Source of the DNA: Macrostomum lignano
Lineage: Eukaryota
Direction of reading: 5' to 3'
Assembly: GCA_002269645.1 (NCBI GenBank)
Contig: NIVC01000102.1
Location: 701,950-765,949, forward strand
DNA: 64,000 nucleotides
Made by a program: the position numbers and the translations under genes. The number at the start of each line of letters is the position of its first letter. Position 1 is the stretch's first letter. Of the stretch, positions 13,548-55,810 are shown in pieces. The notes under the pieces are model-generated. The model was not told the origin of the DNA. It saw only the letters and a program-made list of their open reading frames with translations, and did no database searches.

Positions 13548-14291
13548 ATGCTCAGCGTATCGAACATTGTGGCCTGGATGACTCTTGTCCTTGGCCTCAC
13601 CAATGCCAGCGAGCAGCAGTACAGCCTCATTGACGGCAGCCTCTGCATCAATGCCGAATTCATCGAGTTCCACCCAGCCGTGGTCAGAAAGCTGGCCTGC
13701 GCCTCTCTGTGCTCCCGGAAGCTGCGCTGTCAGGCGTTCAGCCTGGCTGACGGTCCGTGCCAGCTGTTTGTGTTCGACAAGTGCAGCAAGTCGGTGAGGA
13801 GCTGCGGCTGCTCCAGGAGAGGCCGGGTGTTTGTCAAGCAGCGGCCGGGACTCGAGGCGGGCGCGCTGTGTCCGTCTGGCTACGGCATGGACCTGTGCGG
13901 AGTGAAGTACAGGCTGTACTCTGGCATCGGGACGTGGTGGCCGAGCAGGCAGAAGTGCGAGTCAGAGAGCGGTCTGGTCATCATGGCCGACGTGACCAGC
14001 GAGCAGGAGATGAGCCACGTGAACTCCATCTACTCAACCTACAGCTCTGGACAATCGATCTGGCTCGGAGGCCTCCAGCCAGCAGGCAGTGCGGAGCCTC
14101 TGGGCGGCTGGTACTGGGTCGGCTGCAACACCAGCGTTGGCAGCTTCTGGGCTAAGGATCAGCCCGACAATTTCCTCGGAGGAGAAAATGTAATTTCAAA
14201 GTATCTGGATTTTATGGGTCTTACGGATATCGGCGGCAAGTACGATGCTATTTCCAATGTCCTGTGCGAGTGCCTGTCGCCATTTGCTTAA
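13548..14291 (+). CDS. Secreted PAN/apple + C-type lectin domain protein, copy 1 (247 aa, intronless CDS)
   Basis: Signal peptide MLSVSNIVAWMTLVLGLTNA; PAN-like C..LC.....C.AFS....C.L; CTLD with IWLGG, GGWYW, FWAKDQPDN, ENVI and a terminal LCEC. Confidence 0.85.
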   Translation: MLSVSNIVAWMTLVLGLTNASEQQYSLIDGSLCINAEFIEFHPAVVRKLACASLCSRKLRCQAFSLADGPCQLFVFDKCSKSVRSCGCSRRGRVFVKQRPGLEAGALCPSGYGMDLCGVKYRLYSGIGTWWPSRQKCESESGLVIMADVTSEQEMSHVNSIYSTYSSGQSIWLGGLQPAGSAEPLGGWYWVGCNTSVGSFWAKDQPDNFLGGENVISKYLDFMGLTDIGGKYDAISNVLCECLSPFA

Positions 14292-28092: not shown

Positions 28093-28839
28093 ATGGTCAG
28101 CGTATCGAACATTGTGGCTTTGATGACTCTTGTCCTAATTAGCCTCACCACCGCCAGTCAGAAGGTGTACACCCTCATTGACGGCAGCCTCTGCATCAAC
28201 GATGAGTTTGTTCAGTCCTACCCAAACGAAGTCAGCAATGTTGGCTGCGCCTCTCTGTGCTCCGAGAAGCTGCGCTGTCAGGCGTTCAGCCTGGCTGACG
28301 GTCCGTGCCAGCTGTTCGTGTTCGACAAGTGCAGCCAGTCGGTGAGGAGCTGCGGCTGCTCCAGGAGAGGCCGGGTGTTCGTCAAGCAGCGGCCGGGACT
28401 CGAGGCGGGCGCGCTGTGTCCGTCTGGCTACGGCATGGACCTGTGCGGAGTGAAGTACAAGCTGTACTCTGGCATCGGGACGTGGTTGCCGAGCAGGCAG
28501 AAGTGCGAGTCAGAGAGCGGTCTGGTCATCATGGCCGACGTGACCAGCGAGCAAGAGATGAGCCACGTGGACTGGATCTTCACCAATGGTAGTAATTCGA
28601 ACTTCTGGCTCGGAGGACTTCAGCCAGAAGGTAGTGCGGAGCCTCTGGGCGGCTGGTACTGGGTCGGCTGCAACATCAACGTTGATCCCGCTTTTTGGGC
28701 CACTGACCAGCCGAATAACAACGGTGGCGGAGAAAATGTAATCGCGAGACAAGTCAATAAAATGGGTCTCACGGATAGTAGCGACACATACGGTGCTGTT
28801 CCGAATGTTCTGTGCGAGTGCCTGTCGCCTTTTAACTGA
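28093..28839 (+). CDS. Secreted PAN/apple + C-type lectin domain protein, copy 2 (248 aa)
   Basis: Same architecture as copy 1; QPN in the sugar-binding loop. Confidence 0.85.
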   Translation: MVSVSNIVALMTLVLISLTTASQKVYTLIDGSLCINDEFVQSYPNEVSNVGCASLCSEKLRCQAFSLADGPCQLFVFDKCSQSVRSCGCSRRGRVFVKQRPGLEAGALCPSGYGMDLCGVKYKLYSGIGTWLPSRQKCESESGLVIMADVTSEQEMSHVDWIFTNGSNSNFWLGGLQPEGSAEPLGGWYWVGCNINVDPAFWATDQPNNNGGGENVIARQVNKMGLTDSSDTYGAVPNVLCECLSPFN

Positions 28840-33310: not shown

Positions 33311-34571
33311 ACCAACCAACCAACCAAGACACCCTCTCCAATTAAAACTCTTGCGAACCCCAAATGATACAGTCAACGATAGCATTTTTCCCTGAGTTCG
33401 TTCGGTCAAGAGCGTCAGATAAAACTTATGGGTGTTGGCAAGGGAAGTCACTGCATGCTTGGCCTAATGAGGCGGCCGCAGAGTTTTTGTACTTTTAACG
33501 TGTATTACTCTATCATATCCATCAACTATTACCTACTAAACTTATTCGTCTAAATAAGTTCAACCTGTCAGGAATGTCAGGTGTTTGAATTCTAGACAGT
33601 GATTGCAGTGATGGGCTGGGTTCTAGCGTTAGCTGCTGTTGACCTCATGATTGATGCTGTAAATGCTCTTGTAAGTCTTTAGAATGATGAAACCATGAAT
33701 AGAAAGGCTTCAAGGCCTGACTGTCAAAGCTTGTTTAAGATGCGGCTAAAAGTTGAAAAATTGTAACGAATTGCCTTATACGGTATTGTTCTGTCAGTTC
33801 GACAGCTGAGCTTCCAGTCGTCGTGACCCCTGCATGACGACGCGGAACTCTTGGAGGAAATTTTTTTCAACTCAAACTTTTAACTCTGAATTTTGCTTGA
33901 GGGTAATAAGAAAGTTCCTTTCCCTGTGAATAATTCGGACGTTTCTTCTTCGTACTAAAATGAATGCCAGCTTATTGACCCCTTTGGATGACGAACCAGT
34001 AAGATTGTGATAGGGGGCATTGCCCTCTTCTGATTACATTGAAATAGCAGTGCCTCTGTGCATCATCTCCTGTCCTTTTTCTGCCCTCCAAAGGGCCCTG
34101 CTGGGATTCAACCGCAGGGACATCAAGGCGGTATAGCAAATGGCCTTCTCAGGTTACGGATGATTCGCTAAGTAACGCTACTACCAGAGGCAAATCTGCT
34201 GTGAGGAATGCCCATTTTGCTTCTCCAGTGTCGAGAAGCACTTCGTCTATGACTGCCCAGCCTTTAGAGGCTCAGGCTCACCTACCTCGGGCCAAAGTAA
34301 CCCGGACCTCCTCGACATTTTCAGCTCTGCCAGCTCGTCCGCTACCATAGGGCTACCGGGCGAGCGACCATCCACCTCCCGGACTCTACGAAGACTTATT
34401 GTAGACTTATAATGAGGCAAAGCCAAGGGAAGTAAGTGAGGCAAGGCTGGGGAGAACTGAAGCAGGCATAAGAGACCTACTTAAGCGCACTGAACAAAGT
34501 CGGATGCGCCGCTCTGTGCGCCCAGAACCAGCGCTGTCATGCTTCAGAGTATACTGTATACATGCTTCAAG

Positions 34572-35096
34572 CAGCTGTTCGTGTTCGACAAGTGCAGCAA
34601 GTCGGTGAGGAGCTGCGGCTGCTCCAGGAGAGGCCGGGTGTTCGTCAAGCAGCGGCCGGGACTCGAGGCGGGCGCGCTGTGTCCGTCTGGCTACGGCATG
34701 GACCTGTGCGGAGTGAAGTACAGGCTGTACTCTGGCATCGGGACGTGGTGGCCGAGCAGGCAGAAGTGCGAGTCAGAGAGCGGTCTGGTCATCATGGCCG
34801 ACGTGACCAGCGCTGAGGAGATGAGCCACGTGGATTCCATCTACTCGAACTACAGCTCTGGACAATCAATCTGGCTCGGAGGCCGCCAGCCAGCAGGCAG
34901 TGCGGAGCCTCTGGGCGGCTGGTACTGGGTCGGCTGCAACACCAGCGTTGACCCAACTTTGTGGAATGCTTATCAGCCAAATGCTGCTTCGGAGAATGTG
35001 ATTGCAAGGTTCTGGTATGACGCCAGACTCTCTGACCTGCACGAATCTTTTGCAACTGAGACAGTGCTGTGCGAGTGCGTCTCTCCGTTCAACTGA
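34572..35096 (+). pseudogene. PAN + C-type lectin copy 3, 5'-truncated (no signal peptide); CTLD frame intact
   Basis: Homology to the other copies starts abruptly at QLFVFDKC; open to SPFN-stop. Confidence 0.8.
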
Positions 35097-40465: not shown

Positions 40466-41206
40466 ATGGTCAGCGCATCGAACATTGCGGCCTGGATAAG
40501 TCTTGTACTCGGCCTCACTACCGCCAGCCAGCAGGTGTACAACCTCATTGACGGCAGCCTCTGCATCAACAACGCGTTTATAGATTCCTACCCAACCGAA
40601 GTCAGCAGCGTTGCGTGCGCCGCTCTGTGCTCCCGGAAGCTGCGCTGTCAGGCGTTCAGCCTGGCTGACGGTCCGTGCCAGCTGTTCGTGTTCGACAAGT
40701 GCAGCAAGTCGGTGAGGAGCTGCGGCTGCTCCAGGAGAGGCCGGGTGTTCGTCAAGCAGCGGCCGGGACTCGAGGCGGGCGCGCTGTGTCCGTCTGGCTA
40801 CGGCATGGACCTGTGCGGGGTAAAGTACAGGCTGTACTCTGGCATCGGGACGTGGTGGCCGAGCAGGCAGAAGTGCGAGTCGGAGAGCGGTCTGGTCATC
40901 ATGGCCGACGTGACCAGCGCCCAGGAGATGAGCCACGTAGACTGGATCTTCACCAGCAATAGTAATTCGAGGTTCTGGCTTGGAGGCCGCCAGTCAGCAG
41001 GCAGTGCCGAGCCTCTGGGCGGTTGGTACTGGGTCGGCTGCAACACCAGCGTTGGCAACTTCTGGGCCAGTGGCCAGCCCGACAACTACGGTGGCGGAGA
41101 AAATGCAGTTACAAAATTCCACAACATCATGGGTCTCTCGGATGTCGGTGGCAGGTACTTTGCTGTTTCCAAAGTTCTGTGCGAATGCCTGTCACCTTTT
41201 GCTTGA
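40466..41206 (+). CDS. Secreted PAN/apple + C-type lectin domain protein, copy 4 (246 aa)
   Basis: Same architecture as copy 1; QPD in the sugar-binding loop. Confidence 0.85.
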   Translation: MVSASNIAAWISLVLGLTTASQQVYNLIDGSLCINNAFIDSYPTEVSSVACAALCSRKLRCQAFSLADGPCQLFVFDKCSKSVRSCGCSRRGRVFVKQRPGLEAGALCPSGYGMDLCGVKYRLYSGIGTWWPSRQKCESESGLVIMADVTSAQEMSHVDWIFTSNSNSRFWLGGRQSAGSAEPLGGWYWVGCNTSVGNFWASGQPDNYGGGENAVTKFHNIMGLSDVGGRYFAVSKVLCECLSPFA

Positions 41207-43759: not shown

Positions 43760-44238
43760 GAGTATTAAGAATTCTCGGAATAAACAGACTGCCCTTTGCC
43801 GGATCCTGTCACTGTCACGACTGTTGCCTCAATCACATTCGGAAAGAGTTGCTTGATGATTAGCCTGGTGCCGTTACACAGCTTTGGGGAATTTAAATTG
43901 CGCAGTAGCATAACTGGTGCACCCACTTTTAACTGGAGGTTGTGCGATGGCGTTCCAGGAGGCTCTGGAGAGTTCAAGAACTCAATGGGAAACTCCACAG
44001 CATTGTCAGCAGTCATTGTTGTGTCAATTGACTTGTAGCTGTTGGTATTGCCAGGCATCTCCTTGAGCAGCTGGGAGTTGATACTATTAGCTGCGTAATT
44101 CCTGGGACACAAAATGGCTCTTCAGTCAATCAATGTCAGCCAGTCAATGTCAGAAAACATGTGCAGGTTCACGTAGACCTTTGGCTTAAGCTCCTGCACA
44201 GAAGATACGATTGTACCGAATGCAGCAATTGGTGACAG
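43760..44238 (-). mobile_element. Helitron PIF1 helicase remnant, 3' part (interrupted by the LTR element)
   Basis: YKSIDT...EFLNSPEPPGTPSHNLQLKVGAPVMLLRNLNSPKLCNGTRLIIKQL. Confidence 0.9.
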
Positions 44239-45095
44239 TGTAGAGTGTTCTACCTCCCGTTAAAAAAAGGTTAAAAGAAGATAATCGTATAATGCTACTA
44301 TAAGTAAGTAAGTACACGCATGTGCGCCTAAGCTTTGAATGAATCAAGCTAACAGAAAAATATGTTACCAGAATAATACGCCATGAGCCATTTTCCCCTT
44401 TTAGCGCAACACGAGAATTGTAATGATGCTATTTTGGATCAAAAACTTGCCTATAAATACAAGCGATCTGAAGCGGTATCGGAGCCATTCTCCCCACGGA
44501 AGAGGAGCGCTCCGAAGAGGAAGCCTTAGGAGGACTTCCTGATATACCAAGTCAATCGAGACTCGGTCGAGTTGTTGCGGTAAGCCTTCCTTATTTGCGC
44601 CGTTGTGTTAGAGACGTCTCGCTCAAGTCTATTGAGACTTGAGTCCATTTGAGTCTGTTGAGACTCCTGAGTCTGTTTAGACTCCATTGGTTGCAGTCTC
44701 CAGAAGGACTGCCCCTGATAGATCTTAGAGGACTATCAGTGGTTTCCGGAGCTATACCTAGAGTGCATAGAGGCACTGCTAGAAGAAGGAGGCTTAACTT
44801 AGACCGCAGTTTGGCGCAGGGATCCCATTGTTAATTCGGAAGCTTCCCATTGGTCCGAGCGACAGAATCCGGCCGGAACTATTTGAGGAAGAAAGAAGAA
44901 TCGGACCCGATCTACAAACGAAAGTCAGAAGTGACTATACGAGAACAACTGAAGACAATCGAGAACTACTCCGAGAGATCTCCAAAGGACTCAAGGTAAT
45001 TGAATACCTTCTGTTGACTTACTGGGTTGCCTAGCTGCTGAGCTAGCAGTGATTGTTCCTTGATTATCGAAAGTCGGGTAATAAGGAACACATCA
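44239..45095 (+). repeat. 5' LTR (857 bp)
   Basis: TGTAGAG...ACATCA; TATAAATA at 44452; nearly identical to 53960-54815. Confidence 0.97.
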
Positions 45096-45097
45096 AT

Positions 45098-45108
45098 TGG
45101 TGATCTCG
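45098..45108 (+). promoter_or_regulatory. Primer-binding site, probably tRNA-Trp
   Basis: TGGTGATCTCG 2 nt after the LTR; pairs with the canonical tRNA-Trp 3' end (PBS TGGTGACCCCG) using two G-U pairs. The tRNA identity is inferred. Confidence 0.6.
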
Positions 45109-45809
45109 CCCTCTCGGCACTACTCAAACTTTGAGCAATAGCCTGGCCAAGCTATTGTACAGTGACGAAAGAGCGACTTTATTAATTTTGCGCGCACGTG
45201 TTAGAGTTAACACTTTTCAAGTCCGTACGTTTTGAAACTCGAGTAAATTTTGGTGTACAGGTTTGAGCACCTGTCAATTTTGAGTACAGTTTGAGCACGC
45301 GTGTAAATTTTTGTTTTAACGAGCTCGAGCAAGTGTGAGTTTAAAATAAACCGAAATTAAATTCATCGGTACACTGAAAACAAACCGAAAATAAAAGAAT
45401 CGTCGACGCAAAACAAACAAAAAAATAACGGAAACATTTTGCCGGCACAAAAACTAAAACAAAACCGAAATTAATTGAAACTTCGTGAAGAGCGGAGTTA
45501 ATTGACAAAAAAAGGAAAGTCAAAGAAGAGAAAAAAGCCTTTGCAAAGCAAGAAGACAAAGTCCACTTCAACTTGAAGATACACTTTGCGGGACGCCGCA
45601 TAAGTGCGAAATCAGCAAGCGAACAGAACAAGTTCATTTGAGGACAACCAGTGGCAGCAAGCCACACTGCATTCGAAGCCAGCGAATAACAAATCGACAC
45701 CACAAGACAATTCGTTACAGTTGAGGTTTATTCCGAGGCAAACACCACACTGGACGATCCGTTACAAATCGATCCAGATCTTGAACTACCGTTCTACCCT
45801 ATCAACAAC

Positions 45810-46220
45810 ATGGCGCGGCGCAATCCAACGGTACACAGAGACATCAAAGAAACGGTCGGTACTTTCTCGATGGAGAAAGATTTTAACACATTTGTCGACC
45901 ATTTTGACCTGGTATGTAGGGAATACAACCTACAAAATCCAGAAAAGGCACAGCTGCTGCCACCTCTTCTCCAAGGTACTGCGCGAGAAATTTACGGCAA
46001 GCTGGATGCAGCAACACAGCAAAATTATCCAGCACTAATCATTCAACTGCGCGCGCATTTCAACCGTTGCGGCACAAACAGATCAGTGCTGCTGCACAAG
46101 TTACATAACAGAAGGATGCAAGCAACGGAATCCTTCCTCGCCTTTGTGGACGATATCCGCCAGATAATTAAGGCACTGCATCAGCCACCGCTGCAAGCTG
46201 CGGATCAGCAGCGGAGTTAG
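45810..46220 (+). CDS. gag: Gag N-terminal (capsid-like) part; frame breaks to the long ORF near 46172-46220
   Basis: First ATG after the LTR; FSMEKDFNTFVDHFDLVC...LQGTAREIY...RRMQATESFLAFVDDIRQII is a retrotransposon Gag pattern. Confidence 0.8.
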   Translation: MARRNPTVHRDIKETVGTFSMEKDFNTFVDHFDLVCREYNLQNPEKAQLLPPLLQGTAREIYGKLDAATQQNYPALIIQLRAHFNRCGTNRSVLLHKLHNRRMQATESFLAFVDDIRQIIKALHQPPLQAADQQRS

Positions 46221-49200
46221 CCGCAAGAGAGCGACAACGATTGATGGACCGTGAACAAAACCTCATCCAACACGTAATAAACAATGCACAGCCGTCACTG
46301 CGGGATAGACTTTTGCGCGAGAACATTGAAACCGAGGAAGACCTTTTACGGTGCGGAATGCAGTGGGAAGCAAGCGCTCCACTAATGACAACCGGCAACA
46401 ATGAAGTGCAGAAACTGACACAGCAACTAAACAAGCTGATGCAACATCAAACAGCCGTTATCGCCGAACAAAAAAGACGAAACGAACAAGCCTCAGCCAG
46501 ATGTTACTACTGCGGACAAGAAGGACATTACCAGATTAATTGTCCTCATTGGTCAACAAGATACGACAAGCCACGACAGATATTCAACAATCAGAAGCCG
46601 CAGAAACCATGGCAGCAATATCAAAATCGCCAACAACAAGGCATAAGACGCTTCGGAAATGATAGACGCTTCGGAAATAATGACCGCTCCGGAAATGATG
46701 GCCGCTTCGGAAACGAAGGCCGCTTCAGAAATAATGGCTACAGGCCACGCAACGCCAGGTACGCACAAAGACAGCCAACGCAAGCAATGCCACGATACGC
46801 GAATGCCATCACGTACACACCGGAAAATGAGCAGCAGGAACAGCAAGTGTTCACAATTGACGACTTGGAAATGGACTTCACAGTCCCGGAACTTGACATC
46901 AGCTTGATCGAAAAGAAGACGACGCACGAGGACAACACTGACAACACAGAAGAGGCGAATGAAACCGAAATGATCGAATTAAAAGAGACCACCGGAGACA
47001 GCAGAGAAAACAGGAAGAAAGTAAATCACAAGAAAAGGGAGGAGACGGAGAGCGACACCGGCAACGAAGAAAAGATGAAGACTGGCAGAGAGAACAACTA
47101 TGAATCGACAACAGTGGATGACGACAAAACAAGCACAAAAGACAAAGAAATGAAGGAAGAAGAAGAATGTATAAGTTACGGCAACGATCACGACTGCGAG
47201 GTGCATGATGACACGAACGGATACCGAGCCGAAGAAGGAATGCAGGAAGAACTGAGAGCGGAAAATCTAAGCTCCGACAGCGATCAAGGCTACGAGGTAC
47301 AATGGAAAGATGAAGAAATGGAAAAAGAACAAATGAAAGAAAAGCCGAGTTCCGACAGCGACGAATGCTACGAGATCCGATACAAACGAAATGGTGAAGC
47401 CTATATTCAAACGGTCGACTACAAGGCAGAGAAAAGATACCAAACGCAATGGAGTGAAACAACGGAAACATCGGAAGAAGCTGCAGACGAAGATACTGAC
47501 ATAACCAAAGAGCAAAGCAAATCAGAAGCCTTCCACCTGAATCAGCCAATGGAACAACCGAAAGAATACGATGCGGACATGGAGGATAACGAATGGCAAT
47601 CGCAGCCAATGCCAGCAAAGACAACGGCAAGGTCCAAGAAGTGGAAAAACTGGCTATACTGGATCATCGTGATACTACTGATAGCAGTAGTCGCCAAAGC
47701 AACGGCAACGGAAAAGCCAATGATTTGTCCAACGGATGCGCATATCCAACCGATGATCTACAAGATACCAACCGACATCAAATGCAGCTACTTCAAGACA
47801 AACCAGACGAAGCCAAAGAAGATTACACTCGATCTCTACAAGGCTAACATCAAGAAGCATCGACAACATGGAATAGTGTGCTTCAGAGACAAGCACCTGG
47901 TGGAAAAAGTTTGGCGCGGACAATGGAACCGGATCCGATTTAAACAACATGAACTACATGTGTCACACGCGGAATGCCTACAATGGAACCAAACACTGTT
48001 TTCAAAGGATGGTGAACTGGAACCAGATGAGAAGGTCGGCAACGCACAGCTGTTCAGAACAAAGAATTCAGCCAACGGTCGATACATTCACTTCTTCGGA
48101 AAATGGAAAGAATATATGGCACGCAACAGCTACTTGATCAGAAATATTCCATTCTACCACAATCCTTTTGAAAAAATGGAGTCGCTACAACTGCAATTAA
48201 GCGACTGCCGATACAGCAAAGGATGGTGTCCAACGCCGATACTGCGGAATGAGGAACTATACAGCTTACCGTTGAGTCCAACATATCATCAAGACTATCG
48301 ATGGCAAATTATACGCAGAGGCGACTCACGATATGAAGAACCATCTAAGTCACGACAATACTTCTTCGCGTGGGAAGTTGAGCCGGAAATTGACTGCAAG
48401 CTTCAAAAGTATCACACAGTTGAAAGAGGTCTACTGTCAAATACGTTTTTGGCAAAGTCAGGAGACTTGGCCTTGACGTTTCAAAAGAAGCCGGTTGAAC
48501 AGGAACTCAAATGCAAGGATACGGACAAGACGCTATTCATCTCGGAGCAAGAAATACCAGTCTATGTAAAGGATGACGACAAGCGAACCTTCCTGACGAT
48601 CATAAACGGAACGTATCAACAACAAGAAAGGCAACGACGCGACATCGAACGTCCCAAACTGGTGTCAAACCGACTACTGTCAGCAAAGATAACGGCTTTG
48701 GATCACAATCTACACAACCAGTTAAACCACTTGCATCGAACACTGGTACAGCTAACTTGCAAAATGCACGCAATCAACTTAAATTATGCCAGACAAAACT
48801 ACTATGTCAACCCTACGATGACTTTTCGTAAAATCACCGGAATGACGAACGTTTTGGCAGTTCCAATATACGAGCATCTGTTGATATACAAGTGCACGCC
48901 GATACAGCACTTCAACATCTTGCCGTCAAACACGTCAACAACCTGCTACGATAAGCCAAGGATTGAAGCGTTCTACGAAGGAAAACGAATTCAAGGATTC
49001 TTGGACACGGTACACAACATCATCGTTGGCACCGCAATACCGAGACCTTGCACCACGGCAGCAAACTACTATCAACTGGACAATGCACTACACGTCATCA
49101 AAACAACTGGAACGACAGCAAACATCACAGAACCGGAAGTAATCGTCGACGAAAACTACGACATGGAGGATTTGAAGATCCGATTCAACAGAACGAAGTA

Positions 49201-52200
49201 TACGCCATTCGCCGATATCCAACTTGACGAGATAACACCAGGATGGACGATCAACGACTTCTTGCAAGCGTTCATCACCCAACGCAAGATGATTCACCAG
49301 CTGTTCACAAGAAAGGACAAAGGAACCGGGACAGGAAGATTTCCCGTCCTTGTTTCAATGGACAGCGCCATCAAATCATTTTGGACAAACAGCTTCTGGG
49401 AGCTGCTCAATGGAAGAGGCAGCCTATATCAAGGCTTCATCTTCTACAGCGCCTGCGTTGTTTGGATAGTCACGGCGATCTTTATCATCTCGTCGATAGT
49501 ACGATGCTTCAACAACACTTGTCCCACAGCGAAACGAACAGTGAACGCCATCATGCAGAAGATACCAAGGGAAGAAGACAACAACTTGGAATTGACAGAG
49601 GATACACGTCAAGAAACTCAAGGACAGCCGACACCAGCAACGCGGCTATATCCATCGATTCCGACAACACCAACAGCACCGAGAATGCAGCCACCTACAT
49701 ATCAGCCCGAACAACACGAGCCAAAATGGCCGGAAAACTACGTCTGTACGCTACACGCCGAGATTGGCAAAGCAATGGCTCAGGTCATTGTCAACAACTT
49801 GCCATGTCGAGCACTACTGGATTCAGGCAGCTCAATCACAGTCATCTCGCAACAATTATGCAACAAGCTACGACTCGCGGTACGACCAGCAGCAATCGCA
49901 GTTGCAGGAGCAGGAGGACATTCGCTCAACATCCTAGGAAAAGCAGATATTGACTTGAAAATTGCTAATAAACAGCTGACGGTCCCGACGTACATCATCG
50001 ACAGACTACCAAACCAAGACGTCATCGTTGGAATAGACACGTTCAAACAGCTTCGACTACCATTGACCTTCGACTTCAACAAGCAAACGTTTAGGATCGA
50101 CACGGTGGAGCAACCACTGATCAATCAGATTCGAGTACTACCGAAAGTAACTCTGCAGCAAGATGTCATCATCCAGCCTGAAAGCGCATGTTGGGTCAGA
50201 GCGAAAGCGACCAGCGCGGCAGATGAAGCAATGATATTTGATCCGCACAGGAGAGTCACGGCGAAACATCAAATCATGATGCCTACGGCACTAGTGCTGG
50301 TTGCAAAAGATAAACAGCTGCCAGTACAAATCTTCAACCCGAACGCGGAAATGGTTCATCTACGACAAGGAATGTGCATCGGTCATCTCAACACTCAGGC
50401 ATCGGTTATGCTGATTGAGCACGCGACTCCACGAATAACGGAGGAAGAGTTCCAAAAGAAAATCAACCTGGACGACAGCCCGATTACGGAACAACAAAAG
50501 AAGAAAGTTCGACAACTGTTGTGGAAGTACAACGAAGCCTTCTACCATCATGATTACGACATCGGACGAGCTAAAGACATTAAACAGGAAATCAAGCTTC
50601 TACCGCACACGGAACCAATTCAGTGCAAGCCGTACCCGATCGCCAAGCATCTGCAACAACACTTTGACGAAATCATCGATAAAATGCTAAAGCACGGCAT
50701 CATCAGCAAAGCTATTTCGGCTTACTCCTCACCGTGCCTACTGGTACAAAAGAAGGAGACTAACGAAAGACGACTCGTATGCGACTTCAGACTGTTGAAC
50801 AAGTACATACCGACGGATCAGCAAAGCCTGCCGAAGATCTCCGAACTATTAGCGAAGCTCAACACGGCAAAACTGTTCACGGTATTCGACCTACGTCATG
50901 GATTTTGGCAAATAGAAATCGACAAGGAATCGCGCCAGTACACAGCTTTCAAGACCTACAATGGACAAGTCTACGAGTACAATCGATCGCCGATGGGACT
51001 TAGCAACAGCCCAGCAACGATGAGCCGACTGACAGCATACATGCTTGCAGGATGCACGAACCTGCTGCACTATGTCGACGACATTTTGGCCTATGGAGAG
51101 GATTTCGAGCGACTCTACGAAGCTACGGAGAAGGCCCTGGCGCTCATTCAACGCCAAGGTCTTAAGCTGCAACCGACGAAATGCAAATTCTTCCGAGACA
51201 ACGTGCGTTACCTAGGACACCAAGTGACAGCCAGAGGAATTTCACCGGACCCAGACAACGTGGAAAAGGTGAAGAAGTTTCCTACGCCAACCAGTATAAC
51301 GAAGGTCCAATCATTCCTTGGACTTGCGCAATACTTCAGGAAGTTCTTACCTAACTTCGCAAAGACAGCAAAGCCACTGTACGACCTGCTCAAGTTCGAC
51401 AAATGGAAGCAAGACAACTGGACACAAAGACAACAAGAAAGTTTCGACGAAATTAAACGACAGCTGACATCAGACAAACTGCTACAGCATCCAGACTTCG
51501 ACAAGCCCTTCATCATCGAGACAGACGCCTCAGGAACGGGACTCGGAGCAGTCCTACTACAGGAAACCGAGGACAAGAAGGAACGACCTATTGCCTACGT
51601 CAGTCGAGCACTCAAACCAAATGAGACAAAGTGGTCAGCTACGGAACGAGAGCTACTAGGAGTCTTGTTCGCCCTGCGACAGTTTCATTACTACATCTAT
51701 GGTTCTCCAATACAGACGATAGTACGCACGGATCATGCACCATTGACCTACGTCGTAACTACAAAAGGACAGACCAACAACCGACTTATCAGGATGACAC
51801 TCAAGATCCAGGATTACAACTACAAACTCGTCTACAAACCAGGAATTACCAACAAAGCCGCGGACGCCCTGTCAAGAGCCTATGAAGTCAACGCCATTCA
51901 TCCAATCCCTAACATCAAGGAGTTGGTGGATGAAACCGAGCGCAACAACTTCTACCAAGCGGTTAAAGACGACGACAAGAACATCAAACTCAGTCCCATG
52001 GAACGAAAATTCCTACGCAAGCAACGACAACACCTAACAATCAATAAGTCACGGCTCTACTGGATGAGCGACAATAAACCTAAGATCTACGTACCATATT
52101 CGTTTCGGCAAGCAATTCTCAACGAGCTGCACGACAACCCACTCGCTGGACACCTGTCGGCCGCAAAGACCATCGCGAGAGTGGAACAATACTACTTTTG

Positions 52201-53284
52201 GCCAACTATGTATGGCGACATCAAGCAGTATTGCAACAACTGCCATTCATGTGCTGCATCAAAGACAGGACGACGACAGAAACCGCAGCTACAGTCCATC
52301 CCGAAGTCGACTACAATGGACTGTCTAAGCATCGACATCACCGGACCACTGCCACCGAGCTGTCTCCAGGGCATCGCCTACACCTACATCCTAACCGCCT
52401 TGGACATCTTCTCGAAGTTTGCTATTGCCATACCGATACCGGACATCACAGCTCAGACAATAGCAATGAGTTTCTACAATGAAATCATTTGCAAGTACGG
52501 CACGCCGAAGAACCTCACCTCGGACAACGGATCGCAGTTTACGTCTCAACTATTTCAGCAAGTTGTGAAGATTCTCAACATTACGCAGATCTACACATCG
52601 ACCTACAATCCGAAGGCAAACATGGTTGAACGGTTTCACCGCAACCTGCACGAGATGATTACACATTTCGCGCACCAACAGCCGGAAGACTGGATCATCT
52701 ACCTGCAATCTGTAACAATGGCCTACAACAGCGCTATTCATCGATCAACGGACAATACGCCATTCTTCCTAATGTTTGGACGAGACTTCCAACCGCCGAA
52801 TCTGCTCGCACAGCAATTACTACCATCGCAGTACGTGGAAGTACCGACTTCCATTCAGAAATTCGTCACGCAACTACACCTCGCATGGAAGATCGCTAAG
52901 CACAACATTGACAACCAGGTGGCTCTGACCACCGGCAACGACGCGAGATCGACAACCCTGACGGCCGGCGACATCGTTTACCTACACTACCCGCCACAGC
53001 AGACGCATAAACACGCGCAGAAGTACAAAGGACCGTATCGAGTGGTCCAACTAACTTCACCGACAACGGCGCGTTTGGCTAATGTGCAAGATCCTCACCA
53101 ACATCAGTTCTACGTGCACATCCATCGACTAAAAAAGATTAACACGGACACGGCAACATTTCTGCCGTCACTGGACAACGCGGATCGCACGCGTTCAACG
53201 AACCGCCACATCGCGACGAAGCACGAGGAGACTCAAACGACAGAGGTGAGCCAGCCACATGGCTACAACCTACGACCACGCTAA
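46172..53284 (+). CDS. pol: Gag C-terminus (CCHC) - Env-like glycoprotein - protease - RT - RNase H - integrase polyprotein
   Basis: Frame is open from 46172. CX2CX4HX4C at 46502-46543; hydrophobic signal 47651-47707; RQRR 48629-48640; TM about 49436-49501; DSG 49820; YVDD 51071; ETDAS about 51518; HHCC and DDE integrase with GPY near 53030. Confidence 0.95.
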   Translation, partial: GTASATAASCGSAAELAARERQRLMDREQNLIQHVINNAQPSLRDRLLRENIETEEDLLRCGMQWEASAPLMTTGNNEVQKLTQQLNKLMQHQTAVIAEQKRRNEQASARCYYCGQEGHYQINCPHWSTRYDKPRQIFNNQKPQKPWQQYQNRQQQGIRRFGNDRRFGNNDRSGNDGRFGNEGRFRNNGYRPRNARYAQRQPTQAMPRYANAITYTPENEQQEQQVFTIDDLEMDFTVPELDISLIEKKTTHEDNTDNTEEANETEMIELKETTGDSRENRKKVNHKKREETESDTGNEEKMKTGRENNYESTTVDDDKTSTKDKEMKEEEECISYGNDHDCEVHDDTNGYRAEEGMQEELRAENLSSDSDQGYEVQWKDEEMEKEQMKEKPSSDSDECYEIRYKRNGEAYIQTVDYKAEKRYQTQWSETTETSEEAADEDTDITKEQSKSEAFHLNQPMEQPKEYDADMEDNEWQSQPMPAKTTARSKKWKNWLYWIIVILLIAVVAKATATEKPMICPTDAHIQPMIYKIPTDIKCSYFKTNQTKPKKITLDLYKANIKKHRQHGIVCFRDKHLVEKVWRGQWNRIRFKQHELHVSHAECLQWNQTLFSKDGELEPDEKVGNAQLFRTKNSANGRYIHFFGKWKEYMARNSYLIRNIPFYHNPFEKMESLQLQLSDCRYSKGWCPTPILRNEELYSLPLSPTYHQDYRWQIIRRGDSRYEEPSKSRQYFFAWEVEPEIDCKLQKYHTVERGLLSNTFLAKSGDLALTFQKKPVEQELKCKDTDKTLFISEQEIPVYVKDDDKRTFLTIINGTYQQQERQRRDIERPKLVSNRLLSAKITALDHNLHNQLNHLHRTLVQLTCKMHAINLNYARQNYYVNPTMTFRKITGMTNVLAVPIYEHLLIYKCTPIQHFNILPSNTSTTCYDKPRIEAFYEGKRIQGFLDTVHNIIVGTAIPRPCTTAANYYQLDNALHVIKTTGTTANITEPEVIVDENYDMEDLKIRFNRTKYTPFADIQLDEITPGWTINDFLQAFITQRKMIHQLFTRKDKGTGTGRFPVLVSMDSAIKSFWTNSFWELLNGRGSLYQGFIFYSACVVWIVTAIFIISSIVRCFNNTCPTAKRTVNAIMQKIPREEDNNLELTEDTRQETQGQPTPATRLYPSIPTTPTAPRMQPPTYQPEQHEPKWPENYVCTLHAEIGKAMAQVIVNNLPCRALLDSGSSITVISQQLCNKLRLAVRPAAIAVAGAGGHSLNILGKADIDLKIANKQLTVPTYIIDRLPNQDVIVGIDTFKQLRLPLTFDFNKQTFRIDTVEQPLINQIRVLPKVTLQQDVIIQPESACWVRAKATSAADEAMIFDPHRRVTAKHQIMMPTALVLVAKDKQLPVQIFNPNAEMVHLRQGMCIGHLNTQASVMLIEHATPRITEEEFQKKINLDDSPITEQQKKKVRQLLWKYNEAFYHHDYDIGRAKDIKQEIKLLPHTEPIQCKPYPIAKHLQQHFDEIIDKMLKHGIISKAISAYSSPCLLVQKKETNERRLVCDFRLLNKYIPTDQQSLPKISELLAKLNTAKLFTVFDLRHGFWQIEIDKESRQYTAFKTYNGQVYEYNRSPMGLSNSPATMSRLTAYMLAGCTNLLHYVDDILAYGEDFERLYEATEKALALIQRQGLKLQPTKCKFFRDNVRYLGHQVTARGISPDPDNVEKVKKFPTPTSITKVQSFLGLAQYFRKFLPNFAKTAKPLYDLLKFDKWKQDNWTQRQQESFDEIKRQLTSDKLLQHPDFDKPFIIETDASGTGLGAVLLQETEDKKERPIAYVSRALKPNETKWSATERELLGVLFALRQFHYYIYGSPIQTIVRTDHAPLTYVVTTKGQTNNRLIRMTLKIQDYNYKLVYKPGITNKAADALSRAYEVNAIHPIPNIKELVDETERNNFYQAVKDDDKNIKLSPMERKFLRKQRQHLTINKSRLYWMSDNKPKIYVPYSFRQAILNELHDNPLAGHLSAAKTIARVEQYYFWPTMYGDIKQYCNNCHSCAASKTGRRQKPQLQSIPKSTTMDCLSIDITGPLPPSCLQGIAYTYILTALDIFSKFAIAIPIPDITAQTIAMSFYNEIICKYGTPKNLTSDNGSQFTSQLFQQVVKILNITQIYTSTYNPKANMVERFHRNLHEMITHFAHQQPEDWIIYLQSVTMAYNSAIHRSTDNTPFFLMFGRDFQPPNLLAQQLLPSQYVEVPTSIQKFVTQLHLAWKIAKHNIDNQVALTTGNDARSTTLTAGDIVYLHYPPQQTHKHAQKYKGPYRVVQLTSPTTARLANVQDPHQHQFYVHIHRLKKINTDTATFLPSLDNADRTRSTNRHIATKHEETQTTEVSQPHGYNLRPR

Positions 53285-53404
53285 AGTTTCGAGAACAACC
53301 CCGTGTAGTGACCGGGATAAAGAATAGCACTACAGCTTCGCAAGCTTGTCGTAAAAGGCGACTAATCCGAGCGACACAAAGACAGCGACAAATTGACGAC
53401 AATT

Positions 53405-53779
53405 ATGGGCAACGCACTGTCGAAACAGGCGCCCCAGCCTCAGCAGCTATATGACTGCCCGATATGTTTAACTGATGACTTGGCTGTCAAGCCACCGACT
53501 ATTTGCATCAACGAACATAAAGTTTGCGGACAATGTTTAAGCGATTCACATTATATTCAGCCATGGCAGAATTGTCCCCTCTGTAGAGATAGTTTGCGAC
53601 AATGCGCCTATTGTTATTCTTGGCGCACGTTTCAATATTGTAACCACCAACATTTTATTTGCATGCACTGTTTGAAGCAAACCGCTAGTAGGGGCGTTAT
53701 AGGATGCCCCTTATGTAATAGTATGCCGCGAGACTGCACGTTTCGAAAGTGGTGTCGGATCAAACCTGATGCCACTTGA
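53405..53779 (+). CDS. Accessory ORF: N-myristoylation motif plus two RING-type zinc fingers (124 aa)
   Basis: ATG at 53405 gives MGNALSK; CPIC-x12-C-x3-H-x2-C-x2-C-x12-CPLC and CAYC-x8-C-x3-H-x2-C-x2-C-x11-CPLC. Confidence 0.8.
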   Translation: MGNALSKQAPQPQQLYDCPICLTDDLAVKPPTICINEHKVCGQCLSDSHYIQPWQNCPLCRDSLRQCAYCYSWRTFQYCNHQHFICMHCLKQTASRGVIGCPLCNSMPRDCTFRKWCRIKPDAT

Positions 53780-53944
53780 TGTCTACGCGATATTCGAGTT
53801 TTGACCGCAATATGTACTGAAAAGTTTTTAGAGTTTTGACCAAACCCTCGCTTCACTAGACGCGCACAAAATCAATTGTTTATTTCCTATATTAACTGAT
53901 CACCACAGAATTTTATTGTTAAAACTCGGGACGAGTTTTTTCGT

Positions 53945-53956
53945 AAAAAAGGGAGA
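53945..53956 (+). promoter_or_regulatory. Polypurine tract
   Basis: AAAAAAGGGAGA 3 nt before the 3' LTR. Confidence 0.85.
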
Positions 53957-53959
53957 TTT

Positions 53960-54815
53960 TGTAGAGTGTTCTACCTCCCGTTAAAAAAAGGTTAAAAGAA
54001 GATAATCGTATAATGCTACTATAAGTAAGTAAGTACACGCATGTGCGCCTAAGCTTTGAATGAATCAAGCTAACAGAAAAATATGTTACCAGAATAATAC
54101 GCCATGAGCCATTTTCCCCTTTTAGCGCAACACGAGAATTGTAATGATGCTATTTTGGATCAAAAACTTGCCTATAAATACAAGCGATCTGAAGCGGTAT
54201 CGGAGCCATTCTCCCCACGGAAGAGGAGCGCTCCGAAGAGGAAGCCTTAGGAGGACTTCCTGATATACCAAGTCAATCGAGACTCGGTCGAGTTGTTGCG
54301 GTAAGCCTTCCTTATTTGCGCCGTTGTGTTAGAGACGTCTCGCTCAAGTCTATTGAGACTTGAGTCCATTTGAGTCTGTTGAGACTCCTGAGTCTGTTTA
54401 GACTCCATTGGTTGCAGTCTCCAGAAGGACTGCCCCTGATAGATCTTAGAGGACTATCAGTGGTTTCCGGAGCTATACCTAGAGTGCATAGAGGCACTGC
54501 TAGAAGAAGGAGGCTTAACTTAGACCGCAGTTTGGCGCAGGGATCCCATTGTTAATTCGGAAGCTTCCCATTGGTCCGAGCGACAGAATCCGGCCGGAAC
54601 TATTTGAAGAAGAAAGAAGAATCGGACCCGATCTACAAACGAAAGTCAGAAGTGACTATACGAGAACAACTGAAGACAATCGAGAACTACTCCGAGAGAT
54701 CTCCAAAGGACTCAAGGTAATTGAATACCTTCTGTTGACTTACTGGGTTGCCTAGCTGCTGAGCTAGCAGTGATTGTTCCTTGATTATCGAAGTCGGGTA
54801 ATAAGGAACACATCA
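53960..54815 (+). repeat. 3' LTR (856 bp)
   Basis: Matches the 5' LTR; followed by ACAG. Confidence 0.97.
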
Positions 54816-55810
54816 ACAGCCCCTCCTCAGCACTGACCTCCAAGAGATTAATAGAAAATTGATGAGAAGTTTCATCGCCATAAACTGCAGTCCTCATGTT
54901 GATTCGCATGTGGAGCTTTTCATCTGATGGCCACAGATGCAAAGATGAGGCATGCATTTAGTCTCATCTGCTGGGTTGCCACGCGAAATTACGGCCAACG
55001 TCTGTCTAAAGTCTGCGGAGAGCAGCAGGGTGACACCACCCATGAGCTGGTTGTTGCCGCGCAGATACTTTAGCGTCAGGCTGAGTGCTTCAAAAGCCAG
55101 TTTGTGGGACATGGTACATTCATCCCAGACAATAAGCTTGCAGGCTTGCAACACTCTGACAGTGCCACTGTTCTTCTTGATGTTGCAAGGTAGTTTTTCA
55201 GCTCTTGACAGATCAAATGGCAATTTTAGTGTTGAGTGAGCAGTGCGACCACCTGGAAGTAGCGTGGCTGTGATTCCAGAGGAAGCGGCAGCAACTGCAA
55301 TCTCGCCTCCATGTCTAATCTTTGACAGAAGGAGTTTGATCAGTAAATTTTTTCCTGTCCCCCTGGAGCATCCTAGAAAAGTATTCCTCCTACATTGTTA
55401 TTCACTCTTTGCAGTACCTCTTGGTACGCTTCTGCCTGCTTAGGTAAAAGACGGGGTTCATTTTCCTCAATGAACTGACAAAGCTGCTCGCGGTCAAAGC
55501 TGGTTTCTCGCAGCATCTTCCTACTCAAATTCTCTTGTCGATGCTTCTCGGCTGTCGGACGTCCAAACATGTTCAATTGGGACGATCCGTCTCGTCTCGT
55601 CTCGTTATGGCAGACGAGATAAGTTTTGTTCGCCCATCATGCTTCAGTCAGCTTCTTTTCGGATCTTGGGCGCCGAAACCGCGTACGTCATAGACGTAGC
55701 TGCAGGCCATATCAATGTCATGATGCTTTTATGTCGATGGGCATTGAAACGTCACCGTCGAGGTCCTCAGGCCCGTCTGAACGCATGTCTGGCCCCGCAA
55801 CTTGACATCC
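54816..55810 (-). mobile_element. Helitron PIF1 helicase remnant, 5' part
   Basis: MLRETSFDREQLCQFIEENEPRLL, DAPGGTGK (Walker A) and IVWDE (Walker B); joins 44238 across the LTR insertion. Confidence 0.9.

Follow-up and report, generated by a model that had tools for sequence, protein, structure and literature searches.

The 64,000-nucleotide window analyzed here (contig NIVC01000102.1 of the Macrostomum lignano assembly GCA_002269645.1, positions 701,950 to 765,949) harbors a long terminal repeat (LTR) retroelement at 44239–54815, which is a copy of a multicopy Ty3/gypsy family encoding Gag, a predicted herpesvirus glycoprotein B (gB)-type Env and Pol in a single frame. The polyprotein of this family probably crosses a membrane twice, and its Env tail carries a predicted cluster of retroviral late domains. 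All features of the element lie on the forward strand and are given in window coordinates.

Structure and reading frame of the element

The element is flanked by the target-site duplication ACAG (44235–44238, with the identical four bases at 54816–54819). Its 5' LTR of 857 bp (44239–45095), TG...CA in form, is followed by the primer-binding site TGGTGATCTCGC (45098–45109), the reverse complement of which is the site listed for Mlig_errantivirus_2, and a polypurine tract (53945–53956) precedes the 3' LTR (53960–54815). The two LTRs are set apart by a single substitution and a one-base gap, which marks the insertion as young. The N-terminal half of Gag (MARRNP...) forms a 136-aa open reading frame (ORF) in frame 3 (45810–46220), which is severed by a frame break. 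A long ORF of 2346 aa follows in frame 2 (46244–53284; open from 46169, first Met at 46244, stop at 53284) and contains, in order, the capsid end, nucleocapsid (NC), a linker, Env, protease (PR), reverse transcriptase (RT), RNase H, and integrase (IN). The CCHC zinc knuckle of NC is at 46502–46543 (motif at aa 87; PF00098, E 0.0028, just under the cut-off), the aspartic protease at 49775–50065 (DSG at 49820; PF13650, PF13975, PF00077), and RT, RNase H and integrase, the last with zinc finger and core, at 50747–52612 (PF00078, PF17919, PF17917, PF17921, PF00665). The TG...CA LTRs, target-site duplication, primer-binding site and polypurine tract are those of Ty3/gypsy elements (Metaviridae), as is the PR-RT-RNase H-IN order with the Gag CCHC upstream, although domain order alone leaves BEL/Pao possible.

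In the window copy, a short deletion within the capsid region has shifted the frame, and the MARRNP ORF and the long ORF are out of frame with each other. A search of the same genome at the DNA level listed 43 matches, from which 33 copies were fetched. At the site of the deletion, 30 of 32 other copies were in frame, one was off by a different amount, and one did not cover the site. Hence, the break belongs to the window copy alone, and a programmed frameshift at this position was ruled out. An unbroken frame that starts at MARRNP and runs through integrase (2439 to 2498 aa) was found in 6 of the 33 copies, and two further copies were interrupted only close to the integrase end. The remaining picture is one of scattered damage: frame breaks occurred somewhere in 27 of 33 copies, with no common gag/env or env/pol shift, and may be either mutations or assembly errors. 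One of the unbroken copies, L014, was 99.2 to 100% identical to 13 other fetched copies. Since the break is confined to the window copy and unbroken ORFs exist in other copies, the gag-env-pol polyprotein is a property of the family and not of the window copy. The sequence-only reading of this locus, which had placed MARRNP at the start of a polyprotein, thus holds for the family (6/33 copies) and fails for the window copy, where MARRNP opens a separate ORF.

The single-frame arrangement extends beyond this family. Searching the genome with Env recovered additional families, with identities of about 70%, 31%, and 23%; of 10 elements fetched from these other Env-bearing families, 5 had a single-frame ORF from Gag to integrase, of 2458 to 2866 aa. 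In the 31%-identity families (C247, C1672, L052, and L054), the Env ectodomain was about 200 to 270 residues longer than that of the window. Homologous proteins were collected by a full HMMER library scan, which gave 62, and by a word-indexed search, which gave two near-identical proteins. Among named proteins, the closest come from Macrostomum lignano (94% identity). CCHC, Env, and PR occurred in one chain in 14 of 61 homologues from the HMMER scan, some of which are gene models, so that one chain is not always one ORF; among these, one bears the name of the nematode Globodera rostochiensis, and a bryozoan protein belongs to another cluster. Two protease-like domains lie in tandem between Env and RT in four homologues (P0036, P0063, P0031, and P0051).

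A gB-type Env and its predicted membrane topology

The 575 residues between the two hydrophobic runs of the long ORF (47708–49432) gave a weak match to PF24664 (E 7.5e-6, under the cut-off), and a profile built from 36 homologues matched herpesvirus gB with an E value of 1.4e-19. An AlphaFold model of this region (mean predicted local distance difference test score of 78.8) was compared with known structures using Foldseek, which retrieved Epstein-Barr virus gB at E 2.4e-21 and gB structures at E ~1e-21, with TM-scores near 0.4. Because the family match, the profile match, and the model match all point to gB, the insert is identified, at the level of a predicted fold, as a class III gB-type Env with a predicted luminal ectodomain. 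The ectodomain contains 12 Cys, 6 N-glycosylation sequons, and a furin-type site, RQRR (48629–48640). The ratio of nonsynonymous to synonymous substitutions (dN/dS) between natural copies was 0.05 to 0.09 for Env, close to the PR and IN values and indicative of purifying selection, whereas it was 0.37 to 0.55 for the fast-evolving acidic linker between Gag and Env (46814–47608; 265 aa, 31% D/E), a predicted cytosolic tether. The Cys pattern, the furin site, and both hydrophobic segments were retained.

The two hydrophobic runs are the top two 19-mers of the 2346-aa ORF (Kyte-Doolittle 2.39 and 2.19; the next scores 1.51), and by hydropathy, they bound the ectodomain as a signal or transmembrane segment and a transmembrane segment. 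The first (47627–47707) has the layout of an internal signal: a basic n-region, ARSKKWKN (47627–47650), stands ahead of the hydrophobic core WLYWIIVILLIAVVAKATA (47651–47707), which closes on the small residues A-T-A, where signal peptidase may cut. The second, the predicted Env transmembrane anchor or stop-transfer (49433–49501), is followed by R at 49502, and the protease DSG at 49820 comes about 106 aa later. These are the features on which the sequence-only reading had relied, including a protease about 100 aa past the second run, and each was borne out. In 23 homologues with a placeable Env start, a 15-residue core lies just upstream of Env, with basic residues before it and small residues after it, and the net charge was greater before than after the segment in 21 of the 23. 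Within 30 aa of the first core, a Met occurs in only 7 of the 23, by which a conserved Met ahead of the signal was ruled out. Behind the second segment, basic residues and no acidic ones were found in 8 of 8 elements from the same genome. Hydrophobicity of the signal region is retained at only 69% identity between subfamilies.

The charge and residue pattern of the first segment fits an internal signal with its N-terminal side in the cytosol. Based on the charge pattern, the sequons, the Cys residues, the furin site, the dN/dS contrast, and the retained hydrophobicity of the signal, a topology with cytosolic Gag, luminal Env, and cytosolic Pol is very probable. Further support for a cytosolic Env tail and Pol comes from the late-domain cluster described below, which lies past the Env anchor. 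Therefore, the membrane-threaded polyprotein proposed from the sequence keeps its two segments, its cytosolic basic residues, and its gB ectodomain; it does not apply to the frame-broken window copy, and the layout as such had already been described. In one distant homologue (P0025), a 2A-like DVESNPGP stands at residues 198 to 206, directly ahead of the Env signal, which suggests that ribosome skipping may split Gag from Env in that lineage.

Late-domain motifs, candidate protease sites, and a proposed model of assembly

A Pro-rich peptide between the Env anchor and PR (49646–49702) contains LYPSI, PTAP, and PPTY within 19 residues. Late domains of the three retroviral classes bind ALIX, TSG101, and Nedd4 ligases, as set out in excerpts of PMC8952333, and LYPSI, PTAP, and PPTY are predicted members of the ALIX, TSG101, and Nedd4 types, respectively. 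All three motifs, PTAP, YPx[LI], and PPxY, were present in 33 of 33 tails of the family readable in one frame, a 34th being dropped for a break. For comparison across families, we used eight elements from the Env-bearing families of the same genome, which are related and represent three or four independent lineages, with an Env identity to the window of 23 to 65% where aligned. Shuffling each tail gave expectations of 0.20 for P[ST]AP and 0.04 for [LI]YPx[LI], whereas the motifs were found in 6 and 5 of the 8, respectively. When collapsed to four lineages, both motifs were present in three of the four (P about 3e-4 for P[ST]AP and 2e-6 for [LI]YPx[LI]). In 27 pooled chains, P[ST]AP occurred in 7 tails (3,341 residues) versus 3 times in the remaining 47,745 residues. 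As a control, we took 20 elements without Env upstream of PR, chosen from 150 listed protease matches and belonging to 8 lineages; none of the 20 had any of the late motifs in the 130 codons before PR, and the 500 codons before PR, read in any frame, yielded two PTAP, two PPxY, and one YPxL. Overall, these counts make the predicted late-domain feature firm in these flatworm lineages, and beyond them it is unproven.

The ORF also contains recurrent words that may be cleaved by the viral protease. [VA]NA[IV] occurs three times against 0.09 expected, and at least three occurrences were seen in 2 of 2,000 shuffles, for a motif picked after seeing the sequence. The three words lie behind NC (YANAI, 46796–46810), 14 residues past the Env anchor (TVNAI, 49538–49552), and at the RNase H/integrase border (EVNAI, which YANAI resembles); none lies in the ectodomain, and similar words occupy equivalent positions in other families. 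YVCTL (49739–49753) is a candidate for the N-terminal cut of PR. If the VNAI-like words are protease sites, as their placement suggests, Gag would be anchored only until maturation, and about 65 residues between the Env tail and the protease would be excised as a peptide. In flaviviruses, the membrane anchor of the capsid is likewise transient. The earlier proposal that Gag stays anchored by the signal is thus modified, as a lasting anchor is not required and the anchor is probably transient.

Taken together, these features lead us to favor, with moderate confidence, a model in which the polyprotein threads the membrane of the endoplasmic reticulum (ER) twice, buds enveloped through the host endosomal sorting complexes required for transport (ESCRT), and is then matured by its protease. 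From the single ORF of the family (seen in 6/33 copies), Gag would be made in the cytosol, the internal signal would start translocation of Env, the second run would stop it, and Pol would again be made in the cytosol, a sequence of events that we regard as highly likely. Signal peptidase would then probably cut past A-x-A and furin at RQRR, so that one membrane would hold two products, Gag-linker-anchor and Env-tail-Pol. It is somewhat less certain, while still the likelier course, that the Pro-rich peptide would recruit TSG101 and ALIX, as well as Nedd4 ligases in the window family, and that the job of retroviral p6 or p2b would so be done by the Env tail and not by Gag. Gag hung on its signal anchor and Pol on the Env tail would both be carried to the budding membrane, the covalent anchor standing in for a myristoylated matrix domain. 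Finally, the protease would cut the VNAI-like sites behind NC, in the Env tail, ahead of PR, and at the RNase H/IN border, and the core would be freed. Only tentatively can this be extended to the view that these are true enveloped viruses that lack a matrix, hang Gag from the membrane by a C-terminal signal anchor, and place the late domains together with all enzymes on the Env tail; if so, a complete virion would arise from one ORF at a 1:1:1 ratio, maturing after ESCRT scission.

Several observations weigh against this model. The window copy itself is unable to make the full polyprotein. Across the families of the same genome, PPxY was not enriched (1/8), and one element, C103, has no late motif at all. 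Among 19 more distant homologues, some with poorly placed anchors, six had any motif, which is near chance (one P[ST]AP, one LYPxL, three YPxL, and two PPxY, against about 0.2, 0.1, 0.7, and 0.45 expected). Furthermore, the eight sampled elements are related, and both the late and the protease motif sets were picked after viewing the window sequence; YPSI fits a YxxPhi sorting signal as well. The geometry is also awkward: with Gag tethered by its NC end and Pol at the membrane, the core would have to form or re-form after cutting. A 1:1:1 ratio of Gag, Env, and Pol is left without explanation, as nothing found yields an excess of Gag; no slippery heptamer was in frame in copy L014 or common to all six ORFs scanned, and no 2A ribosome-skipping motif was present in the window element or the other loci examined, one distant protein (P0025) having it. 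Because of the 2A-like motif before its signal, a covalent Gag anchor is not universal.

The strongest alternative keeps the same topology and has the protease free Gag and Pol early, at the ER, with cytosolic capsid assembly of the ordinary Ty3/gypsy kind; Env, or surplus Env-Pol, would then be directed by its PTAP/YPxL/PPxY tail to multivesicular bodies for sorting or destruction, leaving Gag in excess. This arrangement avoids the geometry problem, has candidate protease sites on both cytosolic flanks of Env, and agrees with the lack of a clear enrichment of late motifs in distant homologues. Single-ORF gag-pol elements such as Tf1 attain their Gag excess by degrading Pol, which also counts in its favor, as does the fact that the ESCRT machinery makes intraluminal vesicles (excerpts of PMC8952333). 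Nevertheless, an intact Env fusogen under strong purifying selection is hard to explain without enveloped particles, and TSG101-type and ALIX-type motifs are retained together in three lineages, as in p6 of human immunodeficiency virus (HIV); we therefore consider it unlikely.

Less probable still is that the single ORF is merely genomic, with Env or Env-Pol translated from a separate RNA (subgenomic, spliced, or trans-spliced) and Gag or Gag-Pol from RNAs that skip env. Translation of Env would then start at the in-frame Met of MPAKTT (47609), giving an ordinary N-terminal signal peptide of 33 aa, and this Met is visible in 30 of 34 rows of the family alignment. The single-ORF element Cer1 produces spliced and trans-spliced RNA, according to excerpts of PMC3315495, and the ORFs downstream of pol would already require a second kind of RNA or re-initiation. 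However, beyond the scarcity of such a Met among the homologues (7/23), the sister family (C717/C583) lacks it, of two related copies, C1695 and C3269, only one has it, and the gag-linker-env frame is open across families that are 23 to 65% alike in Env despite the fast-changing linker. For transcripts, contigs of four public runs from four studies, presumed to be RNA, were aligned to 44239–53959, a comparison blind to strand, starts, and levels. They covered 30 of 30 bins, and single contigs span from capsid to signal (45914–47755 and 46037–47755). Of 29 joints, 15 were listed, and none of these has GT..AG ends; the long skips 45095–48476 and 48421–53299 have noncanonical ends and are probably internally deleted family copies. 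These contigs carry no weight for or against a subgenomic env RNA. As for Env being a nonfunctional passenger from an old viral insertion, with hydrophobic runs that have no role, the frame breaks in 27 of 33 copies would agree with it, but the low dN/dS of Env, near that of PR and IN, largely refutes it, and together with the retained Cys pattern, furin site, and hydrophobic segments makes it very improbable.

Downstream of pol, the window has an accessory ORF (53405–53779) of 124 aa with an MGNALS start and two RING-like Cys/His clusters, a shortened form of the 222-aa ORF of other copies. Among the loci compared (L016, L028, L035, L044/L045, and L046/L047), fuller copies have two tandem double-RING ORFs of about 222 and 210 aa at this place, and other subfamilies have a 70-aa stub of the first. 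Some contigs have many matches to these ORFs. The first RING ORF has an MGNxxS start and RING-like clusters in all variants of the family, and the sister family starts with MDCPIC. These ORFs are likely ubiquitin-ligase-like accessory genes. Arenavirus Z, a myristoylated matrix protein, has a single RING and C-terminal late domains; it matched the accessory ORF only at rank 17, with a score of 0.87 (Atlas). A matrix role like that of Z was not supported, given the two Cys/His clusters, the lack of PTAP or PPxY, the 100-aa extension in longer copies, and the MDCPIC start of the sister family. PMC5408684 was checked for a RING-type ORF3 in bdelloid elements, and the term RING is absent from it.

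Several other features were observed in the window. In the leader, three short imperfect repeats (GTAAATTTT...ACAG-like) at 45240–45330 are possibly packaging or splicing signals. The element sits within a decayed Pif1-type helicase gene on the minus strand (43765–44234 and 54820–55500; PF21530, E 1.1e-18), and this gene is probably a Helitron. A 246-aa ORF at 40466–41206 has a hydrophobic start and, by eye and with no Pfam match, a lectin-like Cys/Trp pattern; the repeat that carries it is present in four copies in the window at about 90% identity, the others being near 13600–14100, 28150–28650, and 34570–34950.

Relation to known elements and viruses

GAG-ENV-POL elements with a gB-type Env have been described in Nematoda, Bryozoa, and Platyhelminthes, and their ectodomains may be flanked by two transmembrane segments (Chary and Hayashi, eLife; main text of PMC13524379). 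The window family shares their hallmarks, with env between gag and pol, a gB-type ectodomain, bounding segments, and several near-identical copies. On the features listed there, it matches Mlig_errantivirus_2, which is recorded with 16 copies in Macrostomum lignano: the primer-binding sites are identical, the LTR measures about 863 bp versus 857 bp here, the span is about 10.59 versus 10.58 kb, and the Env type, gene order, and host species are the same. The gag-env-pol layout and the two-segment ectodomain are therefore already known, and the element is catalogued. The main text of PMC13524379 does not contain the terms polyprotein, fused, budding, ESCRT, RING, or myristoyl and offers no model of processing or egress. 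That source also cites the nematode NERVs as having env ahead of pol. The opening portion of PMC12801592 has nothing on env, and in the available text of a 2012 review, ESCRT use by errantiviruses is given as unknown (PMC3383448). A literature search, made without access to the nematode NERV paper (Sacco et al. 2022, J Gen Virol; PMID 35550022), found no report of late domains in elements of this type.

The late-domain cluster bears on how elements of this kind assemble and on whether they exit cells, and it turns the matter into a specific, testable egress hypothesis in a model flatworm with routine RNA interference and microscopy. If the model is true, it would give direct evidence of budding by a non-insect errantivirus, with an assembly plan unlike that of retroviruses. 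NERVs reportedly have a continuous gag-env-pro-pol ORF and extra 3' ORFs, and the topology model may already be in the NERV paper. A continuous ORF of this kind is present in 6 of 33 copies of the family and broken in the window copy. The host here is a flatworm, as are the sources of the nearest named proteins, whereas NERVs are said to form a monophyletic clade in nematodes; the window element thus works like a NERV but is not classed as one.

The Env-tail peptide resembles HIV p6, and reportedly p2b of Rous sarcoma virus, in being a Pro-rich stretch with PTAP and YPxL just ahead of the protease and bounded by candidate protease sites. It differs in location, lying not in Gag but between the Env anchor and PR, whereas theirs is at the end of Gag. 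In flavivirus C-prM-E and alphavirus structural polyproteins, a cytosolic capsid is followed by an internal signal, a luminal fusogen, and a stop-transfer; capsid and fusogen are made at 1:1, and host signalase and a viral protease do the cutting. The same capsid-signal-fusogen-anchor plan is proposed here, with no homology claimed; the window family has a predicted class III fusogen where theirs is class II, and it adds reverse-transcribing enzymes and late domains on the tail. Foamy viruses offer a further parallel, as their Gag has no myristoylation signal and the Env N terminus supplies a type II membrane segment that budding needs (excerpts of PMC7828637). Both would bud without a Gag myristoylation signal; however, foamy virus Gag is a separate ORF and binds the Env leader noncovalently, whereas in the window family the link between Gag and Env would be covalent.

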